A stretch of DNA of 64,000 nucleotides from Nitrosopumilus sp. (GCA_965218785.1 OZ244650.1:320001-384000), one strand, 5' to 3'. Positions 45,254 through 63,262 are shown, counted from the stretch's first letter. The notes: generated by a model not told the origin, from the sequence alone. Made by a program: numbers and translations.

Positions 45254-48103
45254 CTATCTATCTTTTCTGCATTTTCTACACCATGATTGTGGTCTAGTGA
45301 TCCCATCCATATTCCTAAACCCAAACCCCGTCTCAATCTTCTGTCGTGATTGAGCCATCTTACCACATTTGGGACATTTGGCATACTCGTTTGCTGACAC
45401 TTGAGTCTTGTTGTGCTTGTCAATTATTCCTCGAACTTCACTTGGATGGAACGCAACATCCCACGTCCAGGTTCCATAGTTGCCGTCCTCGTTTACCACA
45501 TCTATCCATTCCTCCAGATATCTGCGCTTTTCCTTGTTCTGATTGTCATCAATTCCTTTGATCTCAAGAACCAGCGTTACGTTGTTCTTTAATCGAATCA
45601 GAAAATCTGGATAATAATCATGCAGTATTCCGTTATACAGATATCTTATGACAAACCCGATATGATCGTTTTTGACCCATGAGACCACGTTTTTGTTTCT
45701 CTCCAGTTCTTGTCCTGCACCTATCTCCCATCCTGAATCATATACTGCCAGATTGATGTGAGATTTTGTCGTATATTCTGCAGGCTTTTTTGTGTACCAG
45801 GGACGCATGTCTGATGTTGATTTGATGGATTTGTTTGGGTTTAGATGAATACATCTCTTCTCTATATTAGAGTCAGTTATACTCTTGCAGACATGGGATA
45901 CGATCTTTTGCATGTTGAATAGAAGGGTCATTCTTGTCCGCAGTTCATCATCAGATACGTCTACGACGTTGATCTTGTCTGAATGGATGAATTCCTCTAC
46001 AAGTCTTATGACCTGTATGAGAAGAAACTCCCTGTTTCCCTTCCAACTCAGAGACATGCTATCATAGACGTCCTTTGCTGCAACAAAGACTATCCGTTGC
46101 AGTCTTATCTCTTTGTTTAGCTCGTATAGATCAATCTCTGACATTTTATCCACATGTGGTTTTCCTGCAAGAATCTGGGCCATCCCAACTGTTGTGGCAA
46201 TACCGTCGCTTCGTATCTCCAACGGCTCTATCTTTTCCCAGTCCACTGCAAGTTGTGGAAGAAAATCCACGTCAATTCGGTCTATGTTTGGCCACGAGAT
46301 TTTATGCTCTAATTTTTCAGGATCCGAAGCTATAAGCGTAGTGGAAGATGTAGGTGGTGGTGTGCCGTCTCCCCCTTCATGAGGCAGAAACGTAAACGGC
46401 ACTCCAAATATGTTGACATACTCTGGAGAATACAGACCAGTCTCCGAATCAATCTCATAGGATGTCCTCCGCAGTCCCCTGCCCACTACCTGTTCACACA
46501 ATAACTGACTGGAAAACGCCCTCAGCCCCATGATGTGTGTGACGTTTTTTGCATCCCAGCCTTCAGATAACATCTGCACTGCGATTATGTTTCTTATCTG
46601 CTCACCTGGTTTTCCTATCTTGCCTACTGTATCCACCTTTTCTCTTAGAGATTCTGCCTCATCAGATGTGCTTCCGGCTGATTCTTTTTCCTCTGCCTTG
46701 TTCATCGTAGTCGAATCTATGTGCAGCAGGTGTTCTGCATCTGAAAGTTGTTCCAGACCAAATCCGTTTTTCTCAAACGAATACATGATTCGTGCGGCAG
46801 TCTGTGTTTTGTTGCATACGGTAATCATGACTGGTGGAATCTTTGATTCTTGTTTATCCCAAAGCTTTTTTGTCTCAATCCAGTCCTGACCCAGAAGAAA
46901 ATATGCGTTTGATATCAGATCTGGCAATTTTTCATGTGGTTTTGCGTTTCTGTTGAGATCCGGTTTGACCTCGTCGTCTCTATACAGATGATAGAATCTG
47001 GAGCGATATTCCTTTGAGAATCTTCCACCATCGTCTCTGATTGCAATTCTCGGGGTCTTGGTCAGACCAGACTCGATTGCATCATTTAGTGAAAAATCAG
47101 ACACTATCCACTCAAACAGTGTGTCCTCTGTCACGTTTTTACCAGACGGTATAAACGGGGTTGCTGAAAAATCAAAGCAGTGTGTGATGTTTCTTGCTTT
47201 GTGTATTTTGTCCAGTCCTTCAATCCAGCGCTTGTCCCGTTCAAGATCCTTTTGTGAGATATTTGTAGCCTGATCTGCATTTGCCCGGTATGCATGGTGT
47301 GCCTCATCGTTTATGACGATGATGTTGTTATAGTCGTGTCCTAGTATTCTTTTTGCAAAGACACCGTCGCTTTCAGGACCCAGTTTTACCACACTTCTTG
47401 CAGCATCTGTCTCAGACATCAGGGTATGCCAGTTGTGTAGGCTGAATCTGCCCTGAAACAATCTCTCATAAAACGGTTCTGGCACTATACCAAACAAATC
47501 ATAGAAATTATCCTCGTTGGTTGGATACAGTACCCGCAGCCTTGACTTTACGGTCAGTCCAGGTGCCATGATCAGAATGTTCTTTGAGAATCGTACATCC
47601 TGCGGATTTGTTACCTTGTTGATTATCTGCCATGCAATCATCATTGCCATTACTACTGTCTTACCTGTTCCAGTTGCCATTTTACAGCACAGTCTCTGAA
47701 ACAATCCCCCGTCTGAGGGAATGTGTATTCCCTGTTTTTCTGCATCCGATGCCTCAACTAGCCAGATCAGAGTCTCCATTGCCTCCAGCTGGCAGTAAAA
47801 GAACTGGTTTTCCCGCAGGTCCTTGTTTTTCCAGAATTGGAGCAGTTGTCTTGTTACTCCCGTTACATCTGGATAGTCTCTTTCTCTCCAGTCATCGACT
47901 CTTTGGCGTATCCTGTTTACCAATTTAAGCTCCCGAAACTCTCCTGGATCATCAAATGACTTGCTGTCCTGTGATGCAATGAGGAATCCTGCAGGTCTTC
48001 TTCCCGGAGTCAGATCGAATTTTCTTTTTGTGCGGTCATACTTCCAGTGCTGGGATGGTTTTTCATATGGATTGCATACTATAAGATTTTTAATTCCAGA
48101 CAT
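45254..48103 (-). CDS. res: Type III restriction endonuclease subunit
   Basis: MATGTGKT, NDEAHH, FSATP, SEGWD, QVVGRGLR; YPDF...LEIKG nuclease; C-terminal Zn ribbon. Confidence 0.95.
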   Translation of the reverse strand: MSGIKNLIVCNPYEKPSQHWKYDRTKRKFDLTPGRRPAGFLIASQDSKSFDDPGEFRELKLVNRIRQRVDDWRERDYPDVTGVTRQLLQFWKNKDLRENQFFYCQLEAMETLIWLVEASDAEKQGIHIPSDGGLFQRLCCKMATGTGKTVVMAMMIAWQIINKVTNPQDVRFSKNILIMAPGLTVKSRLRVLYPTNEDNFYDLFGIVPEPFYERLFQGRFSLHNWHTLMSETDAARSVVKLGPESDGVFAKRILGHDYNNIIVINDEAHHAYRANADQATNISQKDLERDKRWIEGLDKIHKARNITHCFDFSATPFIPSGKNVTEDTLFEWIVSDFSLNDAIESGLTKTPRIAIRDDGGRFSKEYRSRFYHLYRDDEVKPDLNRNAKPHEKLPDLISNAYFLLGQDWIETKKLWDKQESKIPPVMITVCNKTQTAARIMYSFEKNGFGLEQLSDAEHLLHIDSTTMNKAEEKESAGSTSDEAESLREKVDTVGKIGKPGEQIRNIIAVQMLSEGWDAKNVTHIMGLRAFSSQLLCEQVVGRGLRRTSYEIDSETGLYSPEYVNIFGVPFTFLPHEGGDGTPPPTSSTTLIASDPEKLEHKISWPNIDRIDVDFLPQLAVDWEKIEPLEIRSDGIATTVGMAQILAGKPHVDKMSEIDLYELNKEIRLQRIVFVAAKDVYDSMSLSWKGNREFLLIQVIRLVEEFIHSDKINVVDVSDDELRTRMTLLFNMQKIVSHVCKSITDSNIEKRCIHLNPNKSIKSTSDMRPWYTKKPAEYTTKSHINLAVYDSGWEIGAGQELERNKNVVSWVKNDHIGFVIRYLYNGILHDYYPDFLIRLKNNVTLVLEIKGIDDNQNKEKRRYLEEWIDVVNEDGNYGTWTWDVAFHPSEVRGIIDKHNKTQVSANEYAKCPKCGKMAQSRQKIETGFGFRNMDGITRPQSWCRKCRKDR

Positions 48104-50649
48104 TATTCAAGCCCGATGATCTTTAGGGATTCAATTCCACGGTCGTCGATTATTTTTACAGCTACTCTCTTGTTGGGACCTGCCTCAAACGGGATTGATT
48201 CTGTTCCATGATATTTTTCAATTAATTCTTCATCAATCTTAGATTGTAGTGTCTTTGCAAGTTTTGTCCAACCCCCAGTATTTCCCTCCATTGGAAAGAA
48301 CACCTGTTGCGGATAGACGCTTCTGCCGTCATAATCTTTATCTAGCATCCACATTGCAATCTTGGAAGCACTTCCTGATTCAACTTCACCGGTTCTTGTA
48401 TTGTAATAGTCAAAGCCGTTTACTGTTATGATGTATCTTTTATCTTTGGTTTTTTTCAGTTCAACATCGGGTTGACCCATAAGCCAGAATGATTCATTGC
48501 TTGAGCGTTTCTTTTTTAGATCCTGTGTTAAAAGATCCTTGTTCATCTCGACTTGTAGTATGGTAACATTAGGCCAATTTGTTTTTTCAATGTCTTTTGC
48601 AGCTTCAGGATCAAATTGCATTGCAGCAAAGATTATCATCTTGGGTTTTGGAATTAATGATTGCGCTTCTTCTAATGCCAATGCAACCTGACGTTGTTCT
48701 AGTGGAGCATGTTCAGGACCAAAGGATATCATTACACGTTTTGGTTTGTCTTCTTTTGTCTCAGCATCTGCATGAAGCCATTTAGTTGCAGGATGTGTTT
48801 CTACTTTGATAAATTCAATTTTTTGTTTATTTTTGCCACGTATTCCTGTCTTGGATAATTCTTCCCGCCATTGTTCTTGATGTGAAATTTGGAATGTTAA
48901 CGTATTTGTACTGAAATGTTCTTCAGACAAGATATCTAATGATTTTACAGTTGGAGATGGAACCGCCTCTACTGTAAATGGTCCGGTTATTCTAATTTTA
49001 TTTTTTTGTATAAACGGCTGATCATATAGTGTCTCTGTTTGCGGTGGTTCATTGTTAGCAATAGAGCCTAGTGTAATGTGTGGAACTGTCTTATATTCAA
49101 ACCCCGATGATATTCCTTCTTGTGGTTTATTCAATTGATAATAGTCAAATTTGGATGTCATCAATCTTTGTTTGGTTAATGCTATTGCAATTCGTGAGGT
49201 ATCACATGTGATCCAGCGTCGTCCCCACTGTTCTGCAACATATGCTGTTGTTCCAGAACCGCAAGTTGGATCAAGAACAATATCGCCTGGATCTGTTGTC
49301 ATCAATAGACATCTAGAAATTACTTTTGTCGAAGTTTGTACTGCAAAAATTTTCCCAAATTCACCTTGAGTATCATACCATATATTGTTTAATTCTGAAA
49401 CTGGATAGTCATCAAAATATCGTATATAATTAAGAGTATTACCAGGTGCAATTAACCTTCCTGCTTTCTCTAGACTATTCATGCCTTTCTTATTTGTTTG
49501 CCAACTTCTTCCTTTAACAGGATTAAATTTTTTCCCTTCAAATTCATATTCAAAAAACGTGCTATCTGAATATGCCATTGCTGAAAGTTTGTCGCCAATA
49601 AAAATTTTAGAGTCTATAGGCAAAAGATGAGGATTTATTTTTTCTTCATTTTTTAATGGTCTTCTACTTCCATCTGGAAATTCGACCCAATTGTATCTGC
49701 TATCTAAATTCATTGTTTTCTCAATGAAAATTGTATGAAACTTTGTCTTTTTCTTATCTTTTGCATACCATAAAATATAATCTGTTACTTGAGGAATGAA
49801 AACAGAAGTTATAACCCCTCTAGTTCTAAAATCAATAATGCTAATAAAATTTTGTGGCTTAAATATCTCATCTAAAATTTCTTTTACATGATGTAAATTT
49901 TCACTGGAAATCTGTACAAAAACACTACCACTTTCAGTAAGTAATTTTTGTGACAACAATAATCTATTTCTCAAATATCCCAAATAGGAATGAATTCCAA
50001 GCTCCCAGGTATCCCTGAACGCTTTTATCATTTCAGGTTCTTGTGTTAAATCTTCATCTTTACCATCCTTGACATCTCGTTTGTTTACAAACGGCTGAAA
50101 ATTTGAACCATATTTGATTCCATATGGAGGATCTATGTATATCATCTGCACCTTGCCTCCCATTCCTTCTTTTTCTAACAGTGAATTCATTACCAAAAGG
50201 GAATCTCCAGCAATCAGTCTGTTTGACCAGTTGTGTTCATGTTTGTAAAACTCTATGGCATCTCGTAATGGCGGATTATTCTCAGGTGTTTCAAAATAAT
50301 TAAACATGGTTGCCTGCTGTGCTATTTGTGGCTTCATTGCTTTTTCCAGAATAGTATGTGGATCAATTCTCTCATGGACATGCAAGGAGACGGTATCTAC
50401 CTCAAATTCGGAATTTTCTGTTTTCCCAGACCACTGTAATTGCGGATCAAGTCGCGGATTATACGTGTATTTCTTGCTTGGCTGATCGGGATCAGTTCCA
50501 GGAGTGACCAGCCCCACAGGAGGATTGTTTGGTCTTTTTGCATCTCCATGAGTATATTGATTGACTGTCTTTTTTTCCGACTTTAATTTGCTTTTTGAAC
50601 GATTGATTTTCTTCTTCAACACCCTCTTTGGCAAATTTATAGGACACAA
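48103..50649 (-). CDS. mod: Type III R-M N6-adenine methyltransferase
   Basis: IYIDPPY, LDPTCGSGTT, VKIIDDRGIES; TAATG coupling to res; start uncertain. Confidence 0.95.
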   Translation of the reverse strand: MCPINLPKRVLKKKINRSKSKLKSEKKTVNQYTHGDAKRPNNPPVGLVTPGTDPDQPSKKYTYNPRLDPQLQWSGKTENSEFEVDTVSLHVHERIDPHTILEKAMKPQIAQQATMFNYFETPENNPPLRDAIEFYKHEHNWSNRLIAGDSLLVMNSLLEKEGMGGKVQMIYIDPPYGIKYGSNFQPFVNKRDVKDGKDEDLTQEPEMIKAFRDTWELGIHSYLGYLRNRLLLSQKLLTESGSVFVQISSENLHHVKEILDEIFKPQNFISIIDFRTRGVITSVFIPQVTDYILWYAKDKKKTKFHTIFIEKTMNLDSRYNWVEFPDGSRRPLKNEEKINPHLLPIDSKIFIGDKLSAMAYSDSTFFEYEFEGKKFNPVKGRSWQTNKKGMNSLEKAGRLIAPGNTLNYIRYFDDYPVSELNNIWYDTQGEFGKIFAVQTSTKVISRCLLMTTDPGDIVLDPTCGSGTTAYVAEQWGRRWITCDTSRIAIALTKQRLMTSKFDYYQLNKPQEGISSGFEYKTVPHITLGSIANNEPPQTETLYDQPFIQKNKIRITGPFTVEAVPSPTVKSLDILSEEHFSTNTLTFQISHQEQWREELSKTGIRGKNKQKIEFIKVETHPATKWLHADAETKEDKPKRVMISFGPEHAPLEQRQVALALEEAQSLIPKPKMIIFAAMQFDPEAAKDIEKTNWPNVTILQVEMNKDLLTQDLKKKRSSNESFWLMGQPDVELKKTKDKRYIITVNGFDYYNTRTGEVESGSASKIAMWMLDKDYDGRSVYPQQVFFPMEGNTGGWTKLAKTLQSKIDEELIEKYHGTESIPFEAGPNKRVAVKIIDDRGIESLKIIGLE

Positions 50650-52129: not shown

Positions 52130-53401
52130 ATGACATTGAAGGCTGATCTCAAAGATAAAATATGCGTAAATTCCACATATTCCAAGAATGAAGTCGCCGA
52201 GAGGCTGACCGATATGGGAAAAAATAAACTGTATACAAAAGACACTGTCAAACAAACAAAAAAATCACGACTTCTTGCAAATCCAGACATACGAAGATGG
52301 TACGACAACATGGCTCGTGGAAGTGTAAATACCGCAGAAGGCCGTCTTAGGAGACTGGGACGCTTTTGTGAGATGCACCAGATGACTCCAAACCAACTTG
52401 TGGAACTTGCTCAAAAAGACATCAGAACTGCAACGGATCTCCTAGAGGATCACATTACCATGATGGAAGAAAAAAACAATTCTCCAGGATACATAGAAGA
52501 GCAGATCAAGACTGTAAAATCATGGCTAAGACACTTTGACATCGAGATAAAACGCAAGCTGAGGGTGAGTTGGGCAAATCTAACACCAACCCTGCAGGAT
52601 GAGCGGGTCCCTGATGGAACCGAGATGGCAGAAATTTACAGCCGGGCAGGACTCAGAGAATCCGTAGTAATATCTCTGATGGCAAAATCAGGTCTGCGTC
52701 CGGAAGTAATTGGAAACCACAATGGTACGGACGGTCTAAAGATCAGTGATCTGCCGGACATTGTAATACATCAAGGTAAGGTAAAGTGTATCAGAATGCC
52801 AAACAGAATTGTCGTACGACGACAATTATCAAAGGCAAGGCATCAATACTTTACGTTTGGTACTCAATCTGCAACAAACCACCTCATAGCATATCTCAAC
52901 GACAGACTAGCGCATGGTGAACCACTTCACGGGGATTCTCCGGTAGTTGCACCTGACTATATCTACAAGACAAACCGTGGTAGAAACTCTACAAAAACAT
53001 TTTTACCTACGCCACAGATAAGCAGTCTTGTCCGACAGGTGTTCCGACCAAGATTCACATGGAGACCATACGTGTTGAGACCATACTTTGATACACAGCT
53101 GTTAATTGCCGAATCAAAGGGCAAGATAGCACACGACTTTCGAGTATTCTTCATGGGACACAAAGGAACCATGGAGGCACGATACACCACAAACAAGGGA
53201 ATTCTGCCTGAGGTCTTGGTGGCTGAGATGCGTGAGGCATTTCTCAGATCAGAAGAACACCTAGAGCAGACAGATATCGACCCTGTACTGGAACAACGAG
53301 TAGAAGCCCAGAGCATCATACAGACTGCGACCCCAGAGCAGCTTGACCGAGTGCTAGAGGTGCTTTGCAGCACCGGCAAAACAGGCCAAGCCAGGTCGTA
53401 G
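52130..53401 (+). CDS. Tyrosine recombinase/integrase of element B
   Basis: KSGLRPE, YVLRPYF, FMGH, EARY; likely C-terminal domain continues in the -1 frame to 53502. Confidence 0.92.
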   Translation: MTLKADLKDKICVNSTYSKNEVAERLTDMGKNKLYTKDTVKQTKKSRLLANPDIRRWYDNMARGSVNTAEGRLRRLGRFCEMHQMTPNQLVELAQKDIRTATDLLEDHITMMEEKNNSPGYIEEQIKTVKSWLRHFDIEIKRKLRVSWANLTPTLQDERVPDGTEMAEIYSRAGLRESVVISLMAKSGLRPEVIGNHNGTDGLKISDLPDIVIHQGKVKCIRMPNRIVVRRQLSKARHQYFTFGTQSATNHLIAYLNDRLAHGEPLHGDSPVVAPDYIYKTNRGRNSTKTFLPTPQISSLVRQVFRPRFTWRPYVLRPYFDTQLLIAESKGKIAHDFRVFFMGHKGTMEARYTTNKGILPEVLVAEMREAFLRSEEHLEQTDIDPVLEQRVEAQSIIQTATPEQLDRVLEVLCSTGKTGQARS

Positions 53402-53677: not shown

Positions 53678-53752
53678 GCCCTTGTAGTATAGCCCGGTCT
53701 AGAATTCGGCCCTGTCACGGCTGAGACGCGTGTTCAAATCCCGCCGAGGGCG
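53678..53752 (+). tRNA. tRNA-Asp(GTC)
   Basis: GCCCTTG/CGAGGGC acceptor, anticodon loop CTGTCAC, TTCAAAT T loop. Confidence 0.93.
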
Positions 53753-53859
53753 CCTTGAACTTTTTTCCAAATCCCACAAATGGGCGTATTGCTCAAAAAA
53801 ATAAATCCCCAAAAAAAACCGGCTTAAATAGAGATCAGACTTTGTTGGTATCCCCCAAC

Positions 53860-54984
53860 ATGACTAGAAAAAATCCAGATGATATTCACAATTATGCAGG
53901 CAAGATACGCCGTATAAAAAAAAGACTAGCAGATATTCAACAGGGTGACGTATGTATTCAATTTCTTGACAAGCTAAAACTTGCAGGCAAAAAAGACGGC
54001 AGAATAGTTTACTATGCAGACAGACTTGGATATATCTTGAATTTGTTTAATGCAAAATTTACTTTGCCCGTACTCTTAAAAGATGCAACAAAGAACGACT
54101 GTGAATCAATACTGTCTGAAATAATATCAAACGAGTCATACAGGGGCGAGACAAAAAAGGCATATGCCATGGCACTATTGAGACTGGTTCACTATGCCAA
54201 GACCGGGGAGATTGGAGATAGAGACGAGAATCCATATGTGCCGGAGGTATCCTGGATAAAGCCATCTCGGTATATTGACAGAAGGGAGGAGACGGTACGG
54301 TCTGAGGATCTTCTTACATCCGATGAGATAGTCGGTCTTTTGGGACAGATATCAAACAGACATGACAGGGCAATGTTCTGGGTTTTGTTTGAAGGTGCAT
54401 TTCGAATTGGTGAACTCTTAAACATCAGGATTGGCGGAATAGATTTTCAGGACAACCATGTCTTTGTAACCACGCATGGAAAGACTGGAACAAAGCGAGT
54501 TACACTGGTAATATCCTTTCGTCCGCTACTTGACTGGATAAACGAGCATCCGAGGAGAAATGATCCAAACGCATTTCTGTGGACTCGATCCGGCAAGGGA
54601 GACAAAGTATCATATCATTATGTACGTACACATCTAAAGCAGTATGCCGCAGATGCGGGAATTGTAAAGAGGGTCTGGCTGTATCTGCTCCGTCACACAC
54701 AGTTGACACTTCTTGCCAAAAAACTCTCAGATCATACCCTTAGTGCATATGGCAATTGGAGCCCAAGCTCAAACATGGCAAAAAAGTATGTCCATTTATC
54801 TGGCAAAGATGTTGATAATGCCATCCTGGAGATGCACGGAATCAAGGGCAAGATACCAGAGTCTGATGTCATAACCCTTCGATCATGCACACGCTGTCAT
54901 GCGCAGAATACTCCTGACTGCCGGAGGTGCGTTGATTGTGGGTATGTTTCCAGCAGGCAAATACAAGGATCCATGAGTGTCTGA
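53860..54984 (+). CDS. Tyrosine recombinase/integrase of element C
   Basis: GAFRIGE, GKTG, YLLRH, KYVHL; C-terminal Zn ribbon; ATG 53860 follows TTAAATA box. Confidence 0.92.
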   Translation: MTRKNPDDIHNYAGKIRRIKKRLADIQQGDVCIQFLDKLKLAGKKDGRIVYYADRLGYILNLFNAKFTLPVLLKDATKNDCESILSEIISNESYRGETKKAYAMALLRLVHYAKTGEIGDRDENPYVPEVSWIKPSRYIDRREETVRSEDLLTSDEIVGLLGQISNRHDRAMFWVLFEGAFRIGELLNIRIGGIDFQDNHVFVTTHGKTGTKRVTLVISFRPLLDWINEHPRRNDPNAFLWTRSGKGDKVSYHYVRTHLKQYAADAGIVKRVWLYLLRHTQLTLLAKKLSDHTLSAYGNWSPSSNMAKKYVHLSGKDVDNAILEMHGIKGKIPESDVITLRSCTRCHAQNTPDCRRCVDCGYVSSRQIQGSMSV

Positions 54985-55083
54985 TTTGTATGCAATCTTT
55001 CTGATCCATCTGGTCTGAAATTGTGTGATGGAAAGGGCATGTTCGTACCAGATTCATAGGAAGATGACTCTGGATATTGTTAT

Positions 55084-55326
55084 TAGATTCAAAATCAGTG
55101 TAAAACCATTTTTTTGATACTAGATTCAAAATCAGGTGCAAAACCCTGTTTTCTGATACTAGATTCAAAATCAGTGCAAAACCCCATTTTCTGATACTAG
55201 TAGATTCAAAATCGATGCAAAACCCTGTTTTCTGATACTAGATTCAAAATCGATGCAAAACCCTGTTTTCTGATACTAGATTCAAAATCAGGTGCAAAAC
55301 CCTGTTTTCTGATACTAGATTCAAAA
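55084..55326. repeat. ~38-bp tandem array, ~6.3 copies
   Basis: TAGATTCAAAATC(A/G)..TGCAAAACCCTGTTTTCTGATAC units with small variants, non-coding. Confidence 0.92.
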
Positions 55327-55365
55327 AAAAAGAAAAAATTGGGTAGTAGGGGGGAGATGTTGTTG

Positions 55366-56190
55366 TCATCCTGCCAGTTTGTAAAGACCTGCAGCATTGC
55401 TCATCACCGGATCATCTGGCACCATAATCTTGAATCCCTTGAGCTTCGCTGTCAGCTCCTCGCGTACCCTGGGAATCAGGATGCCGCCGCCAGATACTAT
55501 GATGCTCTTAGTATACCCGTGTGCCTCTGCCATGTCTGATACCTCCAAGGCCAGATTCTCCGATAACGCCTTTGCATATCTGGAACATATGTCCCTGTGC
55601 TGTAACAGTGTCTTTGTGTCAAGATGTGCAAACCTGCCTATCTTGCGCGTGATGAACTCTGATGCCCACTCTAGGCTCTGTCCGTCAAGAATCTTGTTAT
55701 CCTCGATCATCACAATCTCGGATGTTCCCTGACCTATTGATACGACCATGCCTGTACTCTTGTTCATATCAACTAGTGTCCCGGCAGCTTGTGCCACCAC
55801 GTCACAGCTTTGTACTTTGGGTACCTTGCAGATGAGCTTGGTCATGGTGTTTTTGTAGCTGGCAGCCTCGTATGGCAGACCCACTATCACCCTGGCTTTT
55901 TCCATATCTGGCGTGTGGGCGGTTTGGTACACCCTGTCTATGGATTCCCGTACCAGCATATCTACCTGTTTTTGGTATCTCTTTTGCGGTCTTCCCCGGC
56001 ATATGGGACTGATTGCCGTAGTCCCGGCGGTTTTTAGCATCTGTGTGGCCTTGTCTCCTATTGCCTCTGATACGCTCTTGGTCCACTGCCCGTTGATTCG
56101 CCTTGCATAAAGCGATGGGAACTTGAACCTGCAGTAATCAGAGACACACTTTACAAAGCCCGTTCCGATGTCCAGTCCTATCTTTATCAT
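55366..56190 (-). CDS. Actin-like ATPase (ParM/StbA/MreB/MamK superfamily)
   Basis: GLDIGTGFVK (phosphate 1), QAAGT, SIGQGTSE (phosphate 2), VSGGG (adenosine), DDPVMSNAAG; start moved to ATG 56190. Confidence 0.88.
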   Translation of the reverse strand: MIKIGLDIGTGFVKCVSDYCRFKFPSLYARRINGQWTKSVSEAIGDKATQMLKTAGTTAISPICRGRPQKRYQKQVDMLVRESIDRVYQTAHTPDMEKARVIVGLPYEAASYKNTMTKLICKVPKVQSCDVVAQAAGTLVDMNKSTGMVVSIGQGTSEIVMIEDNKILDGQSLEWASEFITRKIGRFAHLDTKTLLQHRDICSRYAKALSENLALEVSDMAEAHGYTKSIIVSGGGILIPRVREELTAKLKGFKIMVPDDPVMSNAAGLYKLAG

Positions 56191-56204
56191 ACCATAACTA
56201 GCTG

Positions 56205-56218
56205 GGATACATTTAAGG
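56205..56218 (-). promoter_or_regulatory. Promoter CCTTAAATGTATCC of actin-like gene
   Basis: Identical 14-mer at 57778-57791, at the same distance from the AbrB-like start. Confidence 0.75.
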
Positions 56219-56357
56219 GCAAAAATCATGCGTGGAACGGCAGGCACAATTTTGTTGGTTGGGGAATCTTTGCTGCATCAGTAAATGATTCTGATACCCA
56301 TCGTCTTTGTCTGTGTCGTATTTGATTTGTCCGGAACTGTGCCTGCCCTTGATGGCA

Positions 56358-56441
56358 GTACGTGCGTGTGCGTGTGCGTGTGCGTGTGCGTGTGCGTGTG
56401 CGTGTGCGTGTGCGTGTGCGTGTGCGTGTGCGTGTGTGCAT
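56358..56441. repeat. (CGTGTG)x12 microsatellite inside an 84-bp purine-pyrimidine alternation
   Basis: Read directly; perfect units 56365-56436. Confidence 0.95.
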
Positions 56442-56589
56442 TCATCAAAAAACCCCCTTACAAAGAATGATTTCAAGACTACTGTAACAGGTTAGGTCAA
56501 ACACAGATTTGTCGTCTGTAGGCATAGAGGTAAGCTTACAGATTACTAATCAAAAATTATTTATTAGCCATGCCGTACACTACAACACT

Positions 56590-57459
56590 TTGACAAAGAT
56601 CGATTATACCAATACCTCTATACACGCATCCACCAGATCACTGCTTGATAAGATCATCCCGATAATAAAGGACTATGAGGAGAGGGGATACCGCATGACT
56701 GTCAGACAGCTGTACTACCAGCTCGTATCTAGAAACATTGTAACAAACGAGATCTCATCCTATCAGAAGACAAGCAAGGTCCTTACCACGGGCCGCATGC
56801 ACGGCCTGATTGACTGGAATATGATAGTGGACAGGATCCGCGTCCCAATAATGCCAAGCCAGTTTTATACACTGGGCTTGTTTATACATGCCGTAAAAAG
56901 ATCATACCGCAGACACAGATGGGATGACCAGGAAAACTATGTCGAGGTGATGGTTGAAAAGGAGGCACTTGTAGGAATACTAGGGCCGATAACAGACAAG
57001 TACCACGTATCATTACTAGTCAACAAGGGTTATGCGTCAGCTAGTGCCATGCATGATGTCGCAATAAGAATGCAGCAGCATAGCGATGAAAAGCGCTGTT
57101 ACATACTATACATGGGGGATCATGATCCAAGCGGCATCGACATGGTGCGTGACATCAGGGACAGGCTGGAAACGTTCGGGCAAAAACCCACCATACAGCG
57201 CATTGCCCTCACAGAGGAGCAGATAAAGCAGTATGACCCCCCGCCAAACCCCGCAAAGAAATCGGATCCTAGATCAAAGGGATACTATGAGAAATATGGT
57301 GATAGTTCTTGGGAACTTGATGCACTTGACCCGCAGGTACTGGCATCCATTCTGGAGGATAACATAAAAAAATATCTTGATGAAGAAAAATACAATGCCG
57401 TCATTCAAAAAGAAGACCAAGAAAAAGACGCGCTTGAAAAACTAACCGATGAACTCTAG
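56590..57459 (+). CDS. Topo VI-A/Spo11-like (Mini-A-type) wHTH-TOPRIM protein
   Basis: TVRQLYY (candidate catalytic Tyr), VEVMVEK, GDHDPSG, RIALT, ELDAL; probable TTG start 56590. Confidence 0.8.
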   Translation: MTKIDYTNTSIHASTRSLLDKIIPIIKDYEERGYRMTVRQLYYQLVSRNIVTNEISSYQKTSKVLTTGRMHGLIDWNMIVDRIRVPIMPSQFYTLGLFIHAVKRSYRRHRWDDQENYVEVMVEKEALVGILGPITDKYHVSLLVNKGYASASAMHDVAIRMQQHSDEKRCYILYMGDHDPSGIDMVRDIRDRLETFGQKPTIQRIALTEEQIKQYDPPPNPAKKSDPRSKGYYEKYGDSSWELDALDPQVLASILEDNIKKYLDEEKYNAVIQKEDQEKDALEKLTDEL

Positions 57460-57478
57460 ATACGCAGATTTTGGCAGG

Positions 57479-57763
57479 TTACATGCGCAGTCCCTCAAAT
57501 TTTGAAGTGTCTGTCTCCTGTCGTCTGTCTGCGGCATCATACACACGGCCCTGCTCATCTGCACTGTCTGCTGATTCATGATTTGTGGCATCCCCCGCCG
57601 GATTCAGGCGTATGGGATTGACAGTTAGACAGTTATTAGATATAACAAACTCCACATACTGATCCCTTTTGATTCCAAGTGTGCGGACTATCTGTCTTGG
57701 TATTGTGACAGTGTAAGAGCCCTGGCGGAACTGGATTTTTCTGATGATTCTAGATGATTCCAT
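57479..57763 (-). CDS. AbrB/MazE/SpoVT-type DNA-binding protein with acidic tail
   Basis: RKIQ..GSYTVTIPRQIVRTLGIKRDQYVEF; start moved to ATG 57763. Confidence 0.85.
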   Translation of the reverse strand: MESSRIIRKIQFRQGSYTVTIPRQIVRTLGIKRDQYVEFVISNNCLTVNPIRLNPAGDATNHESADSADEQGRVYDAADRRQETDTSKFEGLRM

Positions 57764-57777
57764 GTGATGTAATCCCC

Positions 57778-57791
57778 GGATACATTTAAGG
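57778..57791 (-). promoter_or_regulatory. Promoter CCTTAAATGTATCC of AbrB-like gene
   Basis: Identical to 56205-56218. Confidence 0.75.
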
Positions 57792-58150
57792 TGCATTTTG
57801 TGCATTTTGTGCATATTATACCTGAATTTTGGTGGTTCAAAACTTGCAGTTACTCTACAAAACGAGATCAACGAACTATTCAATTGTGTAAAAAACAGAC
57901 ATGGGAAGATTTCATCTCCCACTCCCACTTTATTTCAAGTTCATCTGGGGCGGGCCGGCCGGAACTGTACTGGGATAAAATCAGGGGAGAAACGATAGGA
58001 TGTTGACCCGTCATTCAGAAACAATCAATCACTTAGATGAAAATATTTTGGTCTCCAAGCCCTACCAGTTGGAGTTAATTCGGTGTACGACTCTGGAGAA
58101 AATTTTGAACAAGCCACTCTATTTTGGACTTTCAGACCACGGGGAATATC

Positions 58151-58913
58151 CGGCGGCTCACGTCCTGGCGGCTCTCCACTTCTGGGCTCTCCACTTTGAG
58201 GCTCTCAACTCTCCGGGCTCTCAACTTTGGGGTCTTCTTTTGAGGCTCTCAACTCTCCGGGCTCTCAACTTTGGGGTCTTCTTTTGAGGCTCTCAACTCT
58301 CCGGGCTCTCAACTTTGGGGTCTTCTTTTGAGGCTCTACACCTCTGGGCTCTTCACTTTCCGGGCTCTATTCTTCGAAGGCTCGCGTCTCATGTGGGGTT
58401 CATATCATATCCAAGACTCACGGCTCATACCACGACTCATACCACGGCTCATGTCATATCTCATACCATAACGGCTCATACCACGGCTCATACCACGGCT
58501 CATACCATAACGGCTCATACCATAACGGCTCATACCATGACGGCTCATATCATAAATCATACCATAACGGCTCATACCATAACGGCTCATACCATAACGG
58601 CTCATATCATAAATCATACCATAACGGCTCATACCATAACGGCTCATCTCACGGCTCACACCACGGCTCAAGCCTCCTGTTCCTAGAGTTCGTGTCAAGA
58701 CTCCATACACTGGGGCTCTACCTCCAGCACCAGGACTTCACCTCCAGTACCAGAGCTTCACTACAAAGGCTCCACCTTCATCAACAAGGTTCTACATCAG
58801 GACTCTACCTCCACCAATGGGACTCTACATCAAGACTCCACCTCCACAAGGCTCCTGTATTCAGGACTCGGCGGCTCACGTCTCCCGGACTACGCTTTCG
58901 GGCTCTCAACTTT
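58151..58913. repeat. Composite GGCTC-core repeat region: 3 x 44 bp (58198-58329), 12-15-bp ACGGCTCATACC(ATA) array (~58420-58670), degenerate tail
   Basis: Read directly; bracketed by CGGCGGCTCACGTC at 58151 and 58869. Confidence 0.9.
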
Positions 58914-59103
58914 GACCAGATAACAAGAATTACACACGGCTGCTCTTTGATATGCAGAAGTTTGGTTTTGATTTTGGATGTTATTTGTTGGAATCTTAAT
59001 CTTTCAATCAGGATTTAATCTCTGATGCGCGTTTTGGCCAAACACCGGCGTATCCTGAACTATTGATAGCACGTGTTAAATAATATATGATTTTTCTCAT
59101 ATT

Positions 59104-60504
59104 GTGAACAAGGCAGTAATTGGGGTGATTACACTCTTTGTACTTGGTATCATGGCAGCATCCTCGGCATCAGCTGAGAACACCCAAGACAAACAGTGTA
59201 GGGACATCCACGTACTAGTTGAGAGATCAAACGGCAGTCTTGCCTGTATGACTGAAAAAACAGCAGAGAGGGCAGCAGACAGGTTTGGCTGGAAGATAAT
59301 AACTGTGAATCCAGCAGACAAAACGGTGTCAGACCCTGAAAATCCAAAGTTGCAGGACGACGGGCGGGATGAGGTGGACGGTACTGAATCATCATCAGAC
59401 CAGGCTGCAAATTCCGAACAGAACGCCCGCCCCAAGACCCAAAGTAACAGTGGCACCTTTTGCAACAACGGCGTTTGTAAAGAAATCCCCTACGGGGAGA
59501 CAATCGAGTTTGAGCAGACAGGACACGTCCAAAAAACTGTGGATGGCAAGTTGGTCATAGAAGAGGAAAAGATTCCCACAACCGTCACCATTGGTACGTA
59601 TCCCGAGAAAATACTCAAGGACTGTACTCCCACGGATGGCATCATGCAGTGGGGTGATCTATACAACGGTTCAAAAATTTTAGAGCCGCTGCAAAGGGAG
59701 ATTGATTCAGGCAAGACGCGGCTGTGTGTGTCAATATTTTTCAGTGCCGGTACTATAGATCAGGTTCACGGCTTTCTAGCTGATGAACTTGGTGTAGACG
59801 TAGAAGGAAGTAGAAATGACAGGGGGCGGCACATCATCTACGATTCTGATAATGCGCTTTATGCTGTAATTCCAGTATCGTTAATCGGTGATGTTGCAGA
59901 CAGGGATGATGTCGTAAACATTGACGTGTATGGAAAGAATACGTCGACACCATATCACATAGAACGTGGTCATAGTTCCAAAATAAGTCCGTTACTGCAA
60001 AAGGAGGTTGAACACAAGCAAAAAAACTGTACGTATGAAGAAGACTTTCCCGATACATGTCCGCCCTTACGACAGAATTCAGACGGAGAGTATCTTGTTC
60101 ATGTTGCGATTAGAACTGAGCATATTACCCGGCAGGATGTTAAACTGGATTTCATAAATACAAATGGTATGAGCGCATATTACAATCAAAATTCACGCAA
60201 AGCCGCGAATGATGCAATAAATGCTGAAACTGCCAAACAAAACAAGGTATTGGCACAGCCAGTATTTGATTTCCTTAAAGAGAATAATATGATTAAATCC
60301 TGGTATGTTCCAAAAGAAGACCACTCTGCTACTGATAGGTCCTCAGGTACAAACGGAAGGATGTTATATTATTCAAATATTAATCTTATTTACATCATCA
60401 TACCAATAGATCTTCTTCCACATCTGGTTGAATTAGATTCGGTCTGGTTTGTTGATACCACAAATTACGTTTCACGGGTTAATGATTTTCAATGGAGACA
60501 GTAG
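59104..60504 (+). CDS. Exported protein with Cys-pair N-terminal domain and two propeptide-like repeats
   Basis: Signal peptide; CRDIHVLVERSNGSLAC..GW; YAVIPVSLI..DDVVNID and YIIIPIDLL..DSVWFVD. Confidence 0.75.
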   Translation: MNKAVIGVITLFVLGIMAASSASAENTQDKQCRDIHVLVERSNGSLACMTEKTAERAADRFGWKIITVNPADKTVSDPENPKLQDDGRDEVDGTESSSDQAANSEQNARPKTQSNSGTFCNNGVCKEIPYGETIEFEQTGHVQKTVDGKLVIEEEKIPTTVTIGTYPEKILKDCTPTDGIMQWGDLYNGSKILEPLQREIDSGKTRLCVSIFFSAGTIDQVHGFLADELGVDVEGSRNDRGRHIIYDSDNALYAVIPVSLIGDVADRDDVVNIDVYGKNTSTPYHIERGHSSKISPLLQKEVEHKQKNCTYEEDFPDTCPPLRQNSDGEYLVHVAIRTEHITRQDVKLDFINTNGMSAYYNQNSRKAANDAINAETAKQNKVLAQPVFDFLKENNMIKSWYVPKEDHSATDRSSGTNGRMLYYSNINLIYIIIPIDLLPHLVELDSVWFVDTTNYVSRVNDFQWRQ

Positions 60505-60636
60505 AAGAGGAAAATTTGTGTTGTTATTCCGAATTATCTTATTAGATTCATGATGTAACTAAAGCTACACCTGCTCCCTGAATCCCATACTATCAAAATA
60601 CACCATCCTTAAATAGAGATCAGATCGCCAAATGTT

Positions 60637-60816
60637 GTGAATCTTTTTGTCTGCATTATTGCCGTATTTTTTATATTTGGTACGATCTTTGTGAATTATT
60701 CTTTTGCCCAGTCATCTAACAGTACCGAGACTGTAATGCAGGATATCTTGGTCCACAAGATGGTAAATGGCACCTTTGTCATAGAGCGCGAACAGATAGA
60801 GGCTACAATACCATAA
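60637..60816 (+). CDS. 59-aa exported peptide related to part of 59104-60504
   Basis: GTG start after TTAAATA box; signal peptide; VHKMVNGTFVIEREQI resembles VQKTVDGKLVIEEEKI. Confidence 0.55.
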   Translation: MNLFVCIIAVFFIFGTIFVNYSFAQSSNSTETVMQDILVHKMVNGTFVIEREQIEATIP

Positions 60817-61001
60817 AAAAAACATACATAGCAGTTGCAGTCGTTGCCGTGATTGCAGTTACAGCCGTATCATACGGCATGATCGTAGTAGCCACGACGA
60901 CATTTTACGGAGAAGATAATTCCTTAACAGTGGAACCCGCACCAATAATGGAACGGGCGCTAGGACTTCGGGACCCATATGAACTGGAAGAAGAACCTTG
61001 A
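60813..61001 (+). pseudogene. Small TM ORF lacking a standard start (ATA)
   Basis: KKTYIAVAVVAVIAV... open 62 codons; CCATAA where a coupled CCATGA would be expected. Confidence 0.4.
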
Positions 61002-61105
61002 ACTTTTTTCCAAATCCCCAAAAACCTCAGATCCCTGTAAACTTTTGACTATTTTGTAGATTTTGAGTGAAGTTTAGTGAGAAGATACTCTTTGAACAGT
61101 GGCAT

Positions 61106-61449: not shown

Positions 61450-62652
61450 TTGTCAAAAAAGAACAATCCTTTCAATCCTGGATCTGGGGCAGTTCCGCCC
61501 TATTTGGCAGGTCGCAGATTTGAATTAGAATCATTTTCAAAAATGTTGGCAAATATTCAGGATGATCAAATTGAAAATCTACTAATGTATGGATTAAGAG
61601 GTACAGGAAAAACCGTTCTAATGAATGAATTCAACAAAATGTGTAGAACTAAAAAATTACTACCTATAAAAAGACCTCAATTTAATCTAAAATACTGTGA
61701 TCCTGTTGAATTTACTAAATCTCTCAAATACGATTTACGAATAGCCATAGAAACTTTTTCAAAAATTAAAAAACTAGAGAGGAAATTTCTTTCTTCTGTT
61801 AATTATCTTAAACCTAAAAGTGCCGGTATACCCGGTATGTTTTATTACGAGCCTTCATACAAGTCTACCTCCAATATTCCATTAGAAGATCACCTAAAAT
61901 CTTATTTGGTTAAAAATTGGGAAATAATTAAAAATAGTGACTATGATGGTGTTGTTTTTCTTTTTGATGAATTCCATGCTATCAAAGACATTAAATCTAA
62001 AGGTTGGTTTACATTAGCTGATTTTTTAGGAGTTATTAACGAAGTCCAAAATCAAGGATGTGGATATTATGTTGTGTTATGTGGCTTGCCAACATTACAA
62101 ATTAATGTTAAAGAATCAAGATCCTATTCTGAAAGAATGTTTAAGTCATTAGAGATTTCCAACTTAAAACCAAATGAAGCAAAATCTGCAATAATTGAAC
62201 CATTAAAGAAGAGCAGCTATAAATTTACATCAAATTTAGTTACTAAAATTGTTAATGATACGGAAAGTTATCCATATTTTGTTCAATTTTACTGCAAAGA
62301 AATAATCAATAATACCAATAAAAAAAATATCACGATAAAGGATTATGAATTAATTAAAAATTCCATCATTCAACAGTTGGAATATAATTTCTTTGATCCA
62401 CGGATGGAAATGTTAAGTAATGATGAAAGAATTGTTCTTAATTCTATGTCAACTATTAAAAATAAAAATATTCCATTTAAAATCATTGAACTAAAATCAA
62501 AAATGGATAAAAGAAAACTTTCAAAATATCTCATTAGATTGGAAGAAAAAGGTCTTGTGTACAAGCATACTCATGCTGTTTATCGTTTCTCAGTTCCAAT
62601 GTTAAGGAATTATCTTCTGCATAAAATGTCGACAAAAAATGTCGACTATTGA
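61450..62652 (+). CDS. P-loop AAA/STAND-like ATPase with C-terminal winged HTH
   Basis: NPFNPGSG..PPYLAGR, GLRGTGKT, FLFDEFH, SYPYFVQ, RLEEKGLV. Confidence 0.88.
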   Translation: MSKKNNPFNPGSGAVPPYLAGRRFELESFSKMLANIQDDQIENLLMYGLRGTGKTVLMNEFNKMCRTKKLLPIKRPQFNLKYCDPVEFTKSLKYDLRIAIETFSKIKKLERKFLSSVNYLKPKSAGIPGMFYYEPSYKSTSNIPLEDHLKSYLVKNWEIIKNSDYDGVVFLFDEFHAIKDIKSKGWFTLADFLGVINEVQNQGCGYYVVLCGLPTLQINVKESRSYSERMFKSLEISNLKPNEAKSAIIEPLKKSSYKFTSNLVTKIVNDTESYPYFVQFYCKEIINNTNKKNITIKDYELIKNSIIQQLEYNFFDPRMEMLSNDERIVLNSMSTIKNKNIPFKIIELKSKMDKRKLSKYLIRLEEKGLVYKHTHAVYRFSVPMLRNYLLHKMSTKNVDY

Positions 62653-62899
62653 TTTTAGTATGAAATGTCGACAAAGTCGACAAAAAATGTCGACTATTGA
62701 TTTTAGTATGAAATGTCGACAAAGTCGACAAAAAATGTCGACTATTGATTTTAGTATGAAATGTCGACAAAGTCGACAAAAAATGTCGACTATTGATTTT
62801 AGTATGAAATGTCGACAAAGTCGACAAAAAATGTCGACTATTGATTTTAGTATGAAATGTCGACAAAGTCGACAAAAAATGTCGACTATTGATTTTAGT
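62623..62899. repeat. 48-bp perfect tandem array (5 full units plus partials) containing 17 GTCGAC palindromes
   Basis: GTCGACTATTGATTTTAGT recurs at 62641, 62689, 62737, 62785, 62833, 62881. Confidence 0.95.
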
Positions 62900-63245: not shown

Positions 63246-63262
63246 AATCCCGCCGAGGGCGC
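63246..63262. repeat. att repeat of tRNA-Asp 3' end
   Basis: Identical to 53737-53753. Confidence 0.92.

Follow-up and report, generated by a model that had tools for sequence, protein, structure and literature searches.

A candidate ParMRC-like segregation module with an AbrB-fold adaptor on an integrated element of Nitrosopumilus

How an integrating element of an ammonia-oxidising archaeon might be passed on at cell division is the question raised by a 64,000-nucleotide stretch of a Nitrosopumilus sp. genome (GCA_965218785.1 OZ244650.1:320001-384000, or G000:C1:320001-384000; hereafter the window, by which the whole stretch is meant). The genome is 1.99 Mb long with a GC content of 40.6%. 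Between positions 55,084 and 57,791 the window carries a gene for an actin-like ATPase, a gene for a small AbrB-fold protein and sets of short repeats, which the original prediction, made from the sequence alone, took for an actin-based partition cassette on an integrative element in which an AbrB fold replaces ParR. The evidence in this study argues, at slightly better than even odds (a probability of about 0.55), for a ParMRC-like segregation module of an integrating element with an AbrB-fold adaptor. To our knowledge, Walker-type ATPases drive those archaeal systems of DNA segregation that have been characterised, and actin-based segregation has so far only been hinted at there by the chromosomal salactin.

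The first gene (55366-56190, minus strand) does encode an actin-fold protein, as had been proposed. The product of 274 aa belongs by its fold to the Actin/MreB/ParM superfamily and has the motifs for phosphate 1, phosphate 2 and adenosine. The Pfam family MreB_Mbl matched at 6.3e-12 (45.4 bits, cut-off 27), with ALP_N at 26.1 bits (cut-off 26.3) and Actin at 22.5 bits (cut-off 27), and PHROG 691, described as 'partition protein', matched over the whole length (3e-14). The AlphaFold2 (AF2) model has a predicted local distance difference test (pLDDT) value of 95.0 and a predicted template modelling score (pTM) of 0.91, and its best matches in the PDB by Foldseek are MreB (4cze, 2.5e-17) and actin (1mdu_E, with a query template modelling score, TMq, of 0.78), the TMq range for MreB and actin being 0.7-0.78. 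Residues D7, G9, T10, K14, Q134, G153, G155, T156, G234 and G236 are invariant in 37 aligned family sequences. The phosphate-2 motif reads SIGQGT in the window, which confirms the earlier reading, and the aspartate of the canonical DxGxGT motif is missing from all 37 aligned members, which have S, N, H or A instead.

The relation of this protein to ParM, Alp, MamK and crenactin was judged by profile and fold comparisons. No ParM-named model matched above its cut-off, with the NCBIfam ParM model PRK13917 reaching 24.2 bits against a cut-off of 417 and covering the N-terminus only; no ParM-named Pfam family was listed at E ≤0.1, and ParM in the PDB (3js6) was matched at E 0.33. A protein search gave 148 relatives among 1071 candidates, the named ones being nearly all from Nitrosopumilales, with one labelled Candidatus Micrarchaeota, and a few having been annotated automatically as 'ParM/StbA family' or 'rod shape-determining'. 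In a profile search of 1.84 billion representatives, 59 clusters were found at E ≤1e-30 and were followed by a gap, past which the nearest neighbours are MreB proteins and proteins with ALP_N and MreB-like_C domains (10 scanned of 150 listed representatives). The family can be regarded as discrete because of this gap. Within the order it is present in 12 of 301 genomes and in one family only (11 of 73 sampled genomes), and in 21 of 201 genomes of its Nitrosopumilales family, with up to five copies per genome. An int54-like integrase lies within 6 kb in 16 of 81 loci and an int52-like integrase in 12 of 81, and tRNA genes are frequent neighbours too; this patchy distribution fits carriage of the actin family on mobile elements. 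One representative, P0180 (1113 aa), is a fused form in which residues 549-825 make up the actin domain and a coiled-coil-like region comes after it.

The second gene (57479-57763, minus strand) encodes the candidate adaptor, a protein of 94 aa with an AbrB/SpoVT fold, a disordered linker and the C-terminus ...SKFEGLRM. It matches PF04014 at 2.7e-5 with 24.5 bits, marginally below the cut-off of 24.7, and six neighbour homologues score between 17.0 and 26.9 bits. In the AF2 model, residues ∼5-52 form a beta-beta-alpha-beta-beta arrangement, whilst residues 57-86 have pLDDT values below 50, in line with the disordered tail expected of it. Foldseek returned MazE, AbrB-N, VapB, C56 (pSSVi) and C68 (pSSVx) with probabilities up to 1.00 and no E-value ≤0.001, the top six matches all being MazE or AbrB with target-normalised scores (TMt) of 0.45-0.85. 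The protein belongs to the SpoVT/AbrB superfamily, with its swapped-hairpin domain, and an AbrB fold, as proposed, would take the place of ParR. ParR itself has a ribbon-helix-helix fold. Such a fold was considered for the candidate adaptor and is contradicted by the beta-beta-alpha-beta-beta model and by MazE and AbrB as best matches.

If the two proteins work together, their genes should be found together in other genomes. Across 155 related loci the actin gene almost always has a small adaptor-like gene as its partner. The survey covered 80 loci in species genomes (81 with the window) and 80 from metagenomes; relatives in genome contigs were found by an alignment-based scan, a single-protein scan having given none, and the AbrB hidden Markov model (HMM) was built from seven neighbour proteins. 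Among the contributions of the unpublished genome G271 are a pair of rows in A1, two of the seven HMM seeds, two Pfam matches of neighbours and a Cdc6-like neighbour. Loci were grouped by identity to the window actin, Group A having ≥47% (n = 35) and Group C <36% (n = 23). In the species genomes and the window there are 79 loci with an actin ORF, and 38 of them have a tailed AbrB gene no more than 6 kb away. The linkage anticipated for the two genes is recurrent, and repeats accompany the AbrB gene. Within Group A the figure is 25 of 35, or 20 of 24 where the flanks are complete, the usual order being actin, a ∼1040-aa VirD4-like ATPase and a convergent AbrB gene; within Group C it is 13 of 23, with the AbrB gene typically overlapping the actin 3' end by 38-41 nt. 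Another 21 of the 79 loci, mostly of intermediate identity, have instead a homologous ∼95-aa non-AbrB ORF, which adjoins the actin stop codon or overlaps it. In the independent metagenome set, an AbrB gene or the ∼95-aa adaptor is present in 56 of the 67 loci with ≥400 nt downstream. By the same HMM, there are just two AbrB ORFs in the whole 2-Mb genome. An actin gene linked to a small, putatively DNA-binding adaptor gene, as in type II partition loci, is therefore what these sequences contain.

The ∼95-aa ORF, with the N-terminus MLSK(T/S)ER.F..., is conserved in 61 loci (L064-L100, L121-L198), and no family or fold match was obtained for it (Pfam nothing; one chance match at E 0.43 with PDB profiles; Atlas ≤0.78). 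In G346, an IS-rich genome of 3.2 Mb, loci L114-L118 are decayed modules, one of which has its VirD4-like gene split by a transposase, and another of which has a tailed AbrB gene beside an 85-aa remnant of the VirD4-like ATPase with no actin gene.

The tail of the AbrB protein suggests a further link to the actin. All tailed AbrB partners are built alike, with an AbrB domain, a linker of low complexity (25 to 77 residues) and a conserved short C-terminus, which reads ...KFEGLRM in the window, ...MEGFRM in its closest relative L034, ...(L/M)EKLR(M/L/I)(K/R) in Group A and, for most members, ...SLADLQY in Group C. The non-AbrB partners have clade-specific endings as well (...ILDMNKMA, ...NS.W and ...(F/Y)ENW). 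In a quick tree of the actins, for which the support is by SH-aLRT only, the tail types track the actin clades, and the ending ...ENW/...FENW belongs to a non-AbrB partner in one clade and to an AbrB partner in the neighbouring clade, although the placement of the latter is unsure because of its long branch. This agreement between tail and clade is suggestive and is not a test, since related loci share labels by descent, but it is what a docking peptide co-evolving with its actin would look like. Full-length AbrB matches reaching into the tail at E ≤1e-15 numbered 11 and came only from genomes G000, G136, G333 and G346, all four of which carry the actin.

A predicted complex of the actin with AbrB residues 50-94 scored 0.54 (runs of 0.37, 0.54 and 0.55), compared with 0.00 for the best of three controls; the runs agree in ≥53% of contacts and the partner pLDDT is ≥40. 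In the calibration of this score, 58 of 80 solved complexes and two of 110 mismatched pairs attained the mark; only seven of those 80 complexes, however, attained it at ≤0.60, as did both passing mismatches. The pass may moreover only reflect likeness, since similar complexes (ParM:ParR, crenactin:arcadin-2) have been solved. The prediction thus weakly suggests that the AbrB tail may bind the actin, the contact for which modelling had been proposed.

A contact of this kind need not serve segregation, and the tail may instead be an inhibitor that sequesters actin monomers or caps filaments, in which case the gene pair would serve control or addiction. Exactly such a build is what MazE and VapB, the closest matches by fold, use to neutralise their partners; the C-terminal peptide of arcadin-2 binds the groove of crenactin and depolymerises it (PMC5173319); and the complex score is unable to separate coupling from inhibition. 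We nevertheless consider an inhibitor improbable. Neither MazF nor PIN nor any other toxin-like gene was seen beside the AbrB gene in the ORF list and Pfam scans, the AbrB gene instead standing alone and convergent with the gene for Mini-A, a Topo VI subunit A-like protein; the gene order is not that of antitoxin followed by toxin, and PADLOC returned nothing for the actin or the AbrB protein. We know of no actin-fold toxin.

The promoters of the two genes also point to a joint system. The original prediction noticed an identical 14-bp promoter, and the 14-mer GGATACATTTAAGG is indeed found in the TATA region of the actin gene (56205-56218, minus strand) and of the AbrB gene (57778-57791, minus strand), at a distance of exactly 14 nt from the start codon in both cases. 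The 1.99-Mb genome has no further copy at ≤1 mismatch, whilst a shuffle control at ≤2 mismatches was non-discriminating (≥2 matches in 13 of 100 shuffles). As the TATA-type 14-mer starts 28 nt before the start codon, both transcripts should have little or no leader. Both window promoters read CCTTAAATGTATCC and both L034 promoters read CCTTTTATGCATCC, the 14-mer differing at three positions between the elements, and of 26 positions compared in L049 the actin and AbrB promoters have 24 in common. That the promoters covary within each element argues for joint control of the two genes.

Where the adaptor would bind is less straightforward, as two sets of repeats are candidates for a centromere. 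Directly upstream of the AbrB gene, the 14-mer is followed by three copies of the 9-bp repeat GTGCATTTT (57791-57817; together 57778-57817, minus strand), which are kept in L034 and form a candidate operator or centromere at a site that the family conserves. Short repeats crowd the 170 bp before AbrB in 23 Group A loci, reaching as far as the TATA box; the repeat word varies by AbrB subtype, often with a period of 9 bp (e.g., GTGCATTTA, GTGCGCTTT and GTACATTTT). The second set is an array of 38/39-bp units (55084-55326; 6.3 copies, period 38, 90% matches and score 375 by Tandem Repeats Finder, TRF) that lies 39 bp past the stop codon of the minus-strand actin gene, and whose 20-bp core TTCTGATACTAGATTCAAAA has five copies at ≤3 mismatches, all within the array, against 0.02 expected (100 shuffles). 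This array was rightly described at the outset as ∼38 bp and sixfold, but its proposed role as the centromere stood less well, given that a counterpart was seen only in L034 and that the repeats common to the family lie in the AbrB promoter. Judged by sequence conservation, it is the AbrB promoter, and not the 38-bp array, where the repeat position is conserved.

The 38-bp array may accordingly be an iteron-type origin or the array of another protein, with the partition site, if there is one, being the repeats of the AbrB promoter, and we rate this as a serious possibility that falls a little short of even odds. Besides the family-conserved repeat position upstream of AbrB, it would account for the absence of the array core from the AbrB promoter and for the A/T run after the last unit, and the element bears other arrays. 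Against this, the array lies directly after the actin gene both in the window and in L034, where 2.6 copies share a core of 16-18 bp and the remainder of the unit has diverged, and the variable part of the unit holds a TGCAC- or TGCC-like word that faintly resembles the element's own promoter repeat. Long-unit arrays after partition genes also include known centromeres, such as sopC of plasmid F. Because only L034 shares the array, and does so with a conserved core, the array is probably functional but lineage-specific, its possible roles being those of a relocated centromere, an origin or the site of another protein.

Among the other arrays, two (58170-58670) lie upstream of AbrB and have units of 44 bp (4.3 copies) and of 12/15 bp. 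Many Group A loci have perfect arrays with units of 9 to 51 bp, and in G136 the loci L041 (10756-10986) and L050 (10740-11018) share a perfect 19-bp array of 12.2 and 14.7 copies, respectively, near their AbrB genes.

The repeats at the promoter also invite the explanation that the AbrB protein is simply an autoregulated repressor of itself and of the actin gene, like C68 and C56, with its tail binding another partner and the actin doing another job, such as DNA transfer with the VirD4-like ATPase or AlpC-like transport and replication. C56 (7xi6) and C68 (3o27) are among the structural matches of the AbrB protein, the repeats overlap its promoter, only two palindromic sites are found there in Group C, and the VirD4-like ATPase is wedged between actin and AbrB in 23 of 35 Group A loci. 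We regard this as unlikely, if clearly less so than an inhibitor. Elements without a VirD4-like gene, namely the window, L034, L049 and those of Group C, keep the tail peptide, the tail type tracks the actin clade and persists across a swap of the DNA-binding domain, and a plain repressor has no need of a conserved C-terminal peptide behind a disordered linker of 25-77 residues. As regards the ATPase itself, the copy in L018 (6427-9543) is VirD4/TraD-like by TrwB_AAD_bind (2.6e-5) and PADLOC mad8 (3.3e-14), and its homologue in L026 matches NF045973 (4.3e-13).

The two genes are borne on a plasmid-like element integrated at tRNA-Asp, as evidenced by an integrase, direct repeats and a shift in GC content, in agreement with the original prediction. 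The tRNA-Asp gene (GTC; 53678-53754, plus strand; found by ARAGORN, Rfam tRNA 43.1 bits) is the integration target and is directly followed by a gene for a tyrosine integrase (53860-54984, plus strand), which matches the Phage_integrase catalytic domain PF00589 (5e-16; 59.4 bits, cut-off 27.1), the integrase family phrog_1 (1.8e-24) and XerA-like proteins (4.6e-17); its ORF is open from 53755, with the ATG at 53860 as the likely start. An exact 23-bp direct repeat (53753-53775 and 60996-61018) bounds an inner element of 7.2 kb (53753-61018), and across ∼52 to 60 kb of the window the GC content goes from roughly 37% up to 44-49%. The order within the inner unit is integrase (plus), 38/39-bp array, actin (minus), a GTGCGT tract, Mini-A (plus), AbrB (minus), the two further arrays and genes for secreted proteins. 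A second copy of the last 17 bp of tRNA-Asp (63246-63262) is a candidate outer attachment site for a composite insertion of 9.5 kb, and it is possible that this outer unit, reaching to 63262, includes an Orc1/Cdc6-like gene and a perfect 48-bp array.

As to excision, one public contig runs from 53753 into the nine letters following 63262, and this junction, with nine letters of one contig as its basis, would look like an empty site. A contig of run X1 joins 63328 to 53905 with unknown letters between and is not interpretable. In the public contigs no junction of 61018 or 63262 back to 53753/53754, as a circle would give, was found, and when the right flank was compared across 41 genomes of the genus, six had matches, at only 65-70% identity, and no clean empty site was seen.

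If these parts do form a segregation module, a dimer or tetramer of the AbrB protein would bind the three 9-bp repeats next to its own TATA box, and perhaps the 38-bp array too, and in doing so would also regulate the two look-alike promoters of the actin and AbrB genes. The disordered linker would present the hydrophobic C-terminal peptide ...KFEGLRM, which would dock on the actin. The likeliest docking site is the groove that separates subdomain IA from IIA, by analogy with ParR on ParM. At cell division, nucleotide-dependent actin filaments would then move copies of the excised element or keep them in place.

A number of observations weigh against this proposal. Hydrolysis and filament dynamics may differ or fail, since the phosphate-2 aspartate is missing throughout the family, and the score for the tail-actin complex is weak. 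A disordered, partner-binding tail behind an AbrB domain is equally the build of the MazE and VapB antitoxins, a C-terminal peptide in an actin groove can inhibit filaments, as with arcadin-2, and genome G367 gave a weak tail-reaching AbrB match (E 1.6e-7) and no actin match. The window genes form no operon, having Mini-A on the opposite strand between them, and the arrangement varies in relatives; the VirD4-like ATPase that lies between actin and AbrB in so many Group A loci, though in neither the window nor L034, hints at DNA transfer rather than partition. With respect to the repeats, the 38-bp array has its counterpart in a single relative and shares no clear motif with the AbrB promoter, this promoter has just three short repeats in the window, GTGCATTTT is not enriched elsewhere there (35 matches outside 57791-57817 against 32 expected), and the two palindromic sites of Group C look like plain autoregulation. 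Finally, terminal overlaps revealed no circular contig among the 80 metagenome loci, no relative of the actin family was found among 42 candidate stretches from IMG/VR viral contigs, and no replication gene was recognised in the inner 7.2-kb unit. On balance, gene linkage, tail and repeats partly support the proposed partition cassette, of which the 38-bp array is no more than a candidate centromere.

Seen across the family, the actin may be a cytomotive protein with interchangeable DNA-binding heads, either AbrB or the ∼95-aa fold, that share clade-specific docking peptides; lacking the phosphate-2 aspartate and often joined to a VirD4-like translocase, which would link segregation with transfer, it could represent the first actin-driven DNA segregation in Archaea. 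This wider view is tentative, and we would place it somewhat below an even chance.

Several neighbouring features deserve mention in their own right. Mini-A (56509-57459, plus strand; 316 aa, start codon uncertain) is a Topo VI subunit A-like protein with Toprim and 5Y-CAP domains that matches phrog_6247 at 7.4e-91. Its translation holds GDHDPSG, RQLYYQ and SWELDAL, corresponding to the Toprim DxDxxG motif, the RxxY/FY tyrosine motif and the xWELDAL box that mark the class; the WELDAL, DxDxxG and RxxYY motifs and the virus association of Mini-A have been described previously (PMC7671362). Here it is found on a small integrase-bearing element without viral genes, and 14 of the 81 actin loci have a homologue. 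The divergent actin and Mini-A genes are separated by the tract (GTGCGT)x12.5 (56362-56436; 100% matches by TRF), an alternating purine-pyrimidine sequence that is not in L034 and at which public contigs break. Tracts of this type are prone to form Z-DNA. A contig of run X2 covering Mini-A and AbrB (56445-57873) has a depth of 1153.6, against 48-100 over the integrase and actin genes, although contig depth does not equal copy number; the corresponding contigs of run X1 have depths of 58-65 throughout.

To the right of the inner unit, 61450-62899 encodes a 400-aa AAA protein with an Orc1/Cdc6-like N-terminus (TIGR02928 3.1e-4; AAA_16 1.8e-6), the 3' end of the gene overlapping the perfect 48-bp array (5.7 copies) in a region of 29-34% GC. 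The outer 9.5-kb unit may have its replication module here. A homologue with 57% identity adjoins the actin-AbrB module in a locus of G271, this unpublished genome being the sole basis for the association, and a 39-nt inverted repeat (60898-60936 and 62593-62631, 92% complementary) flanks the region of the Cdc6-like gene. On the other side of tRNA-Asp, by a tRNA-Lys gene, there is a second integrase-like ORF (52130-53401, 423 aa), which has no Pfam match above the cut-off and of which 12 of the 81 actin loci have homologues. Immediately to the left of the element (45254-50649, minus strand) are two large, adjacent genes, one with a ResIII helicase domain (949 aa) and one with an N6_N4 DNA methylase domain (848 aa), which look like a restriction-modification or defence pair.

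No description of this archaeal actin/AbrB system was found by full-text searches, though supplementary annotations may list the genes; likewise, the main text of a survey of thaumarchaeal mobile elements (PMC6563490) has no mention of 'actin', 'ParM', 'AbrB' or 'MreB', and its supplementary annotation may do so. Salactin of Halobacterium is a chromosomal archaeal actin homologue implicated in DNA partition (PMC10746226), for which this study names neither an adaptor nor a centromere and contains neither 'ParR' nor 'adaptor'. The locus described here offers a minimal, clonable system of three parts (a 274-aa actin, a 94-aa adaptor and short repeats) from abundant ammonia-oxidising archaea, with which one can ask whether an archaeal actin filament segregates DNA, whether an AbrB protein can serve as centromere binder and how an actin behaves without the phosphate-2 aspartate. 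It would also supply stabilising parts for the genetic tools that are lacking in Thaumarchaeota.

Of the systems known elsewhere, two resemble parts of the module only. Crenactin is, like the protein here, an archaeal actin, and its groove is bound by a C-terminal peptide of arcadin-2 with a tryptophan, by which filaments are depolymerised (PMC5173319); some adaptors of the present family end in ...FENW. Arcadin-2, however, has no DNA-binding role and belongs to a chromosomal cell-shape cluster. MazE and VapB, as well as C68 and C56 from archaeal plasmid-viruses, share the swapped-hairpin AbrB domain, and the tail of the antitoxins is likewise disordered and partner-binding, yet no toxin gene is adjacent here and the tail co-occurs with an actin-like gene.

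Closer in arrangement is AlpC/AlpA/alpS of the Corynebacterium prophage CGP3, which combines an actin-like protein with a DNA-binding adaptor on an integrated element and serves transport and replication of viral DNA; its proteins are probably unrelated in sequence to the present family. The nearest functional precedent is srpMRC of the SXT/R391 integrative and conjugative elements, where a type II partition locus next to the integrase gene stabilises the excised element (PMC4489591). Like the candidate module here, srpMRC adjoins the integrase of an integrating element, and it is needed only when the element is excised; it differs in being bacterial and in an operon with int, in SrpR having no recognisable domain and in having had its function established by experiment.

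The pattern itself is that of ParMRC from plasmid R1, in which the C-terminus of ParR binds a hydrophobic groove of ParM (cited in PMC5173319). Shared with it are an actin-fold NTPase, a small, putatively DNA-binding adaptor, repeats that overlap the promoter and carriage on a mobile element, whilst the AbrB/SpoVT fold of the adaptor, the lack of an operon, the shorter actin of 274 aa without the phosphate-2 aspartate and the archaeal host set the module apart. As a system it would work like type II partition, yet its actin is no ParM under any of the curated models and its adaptor is no ParR.

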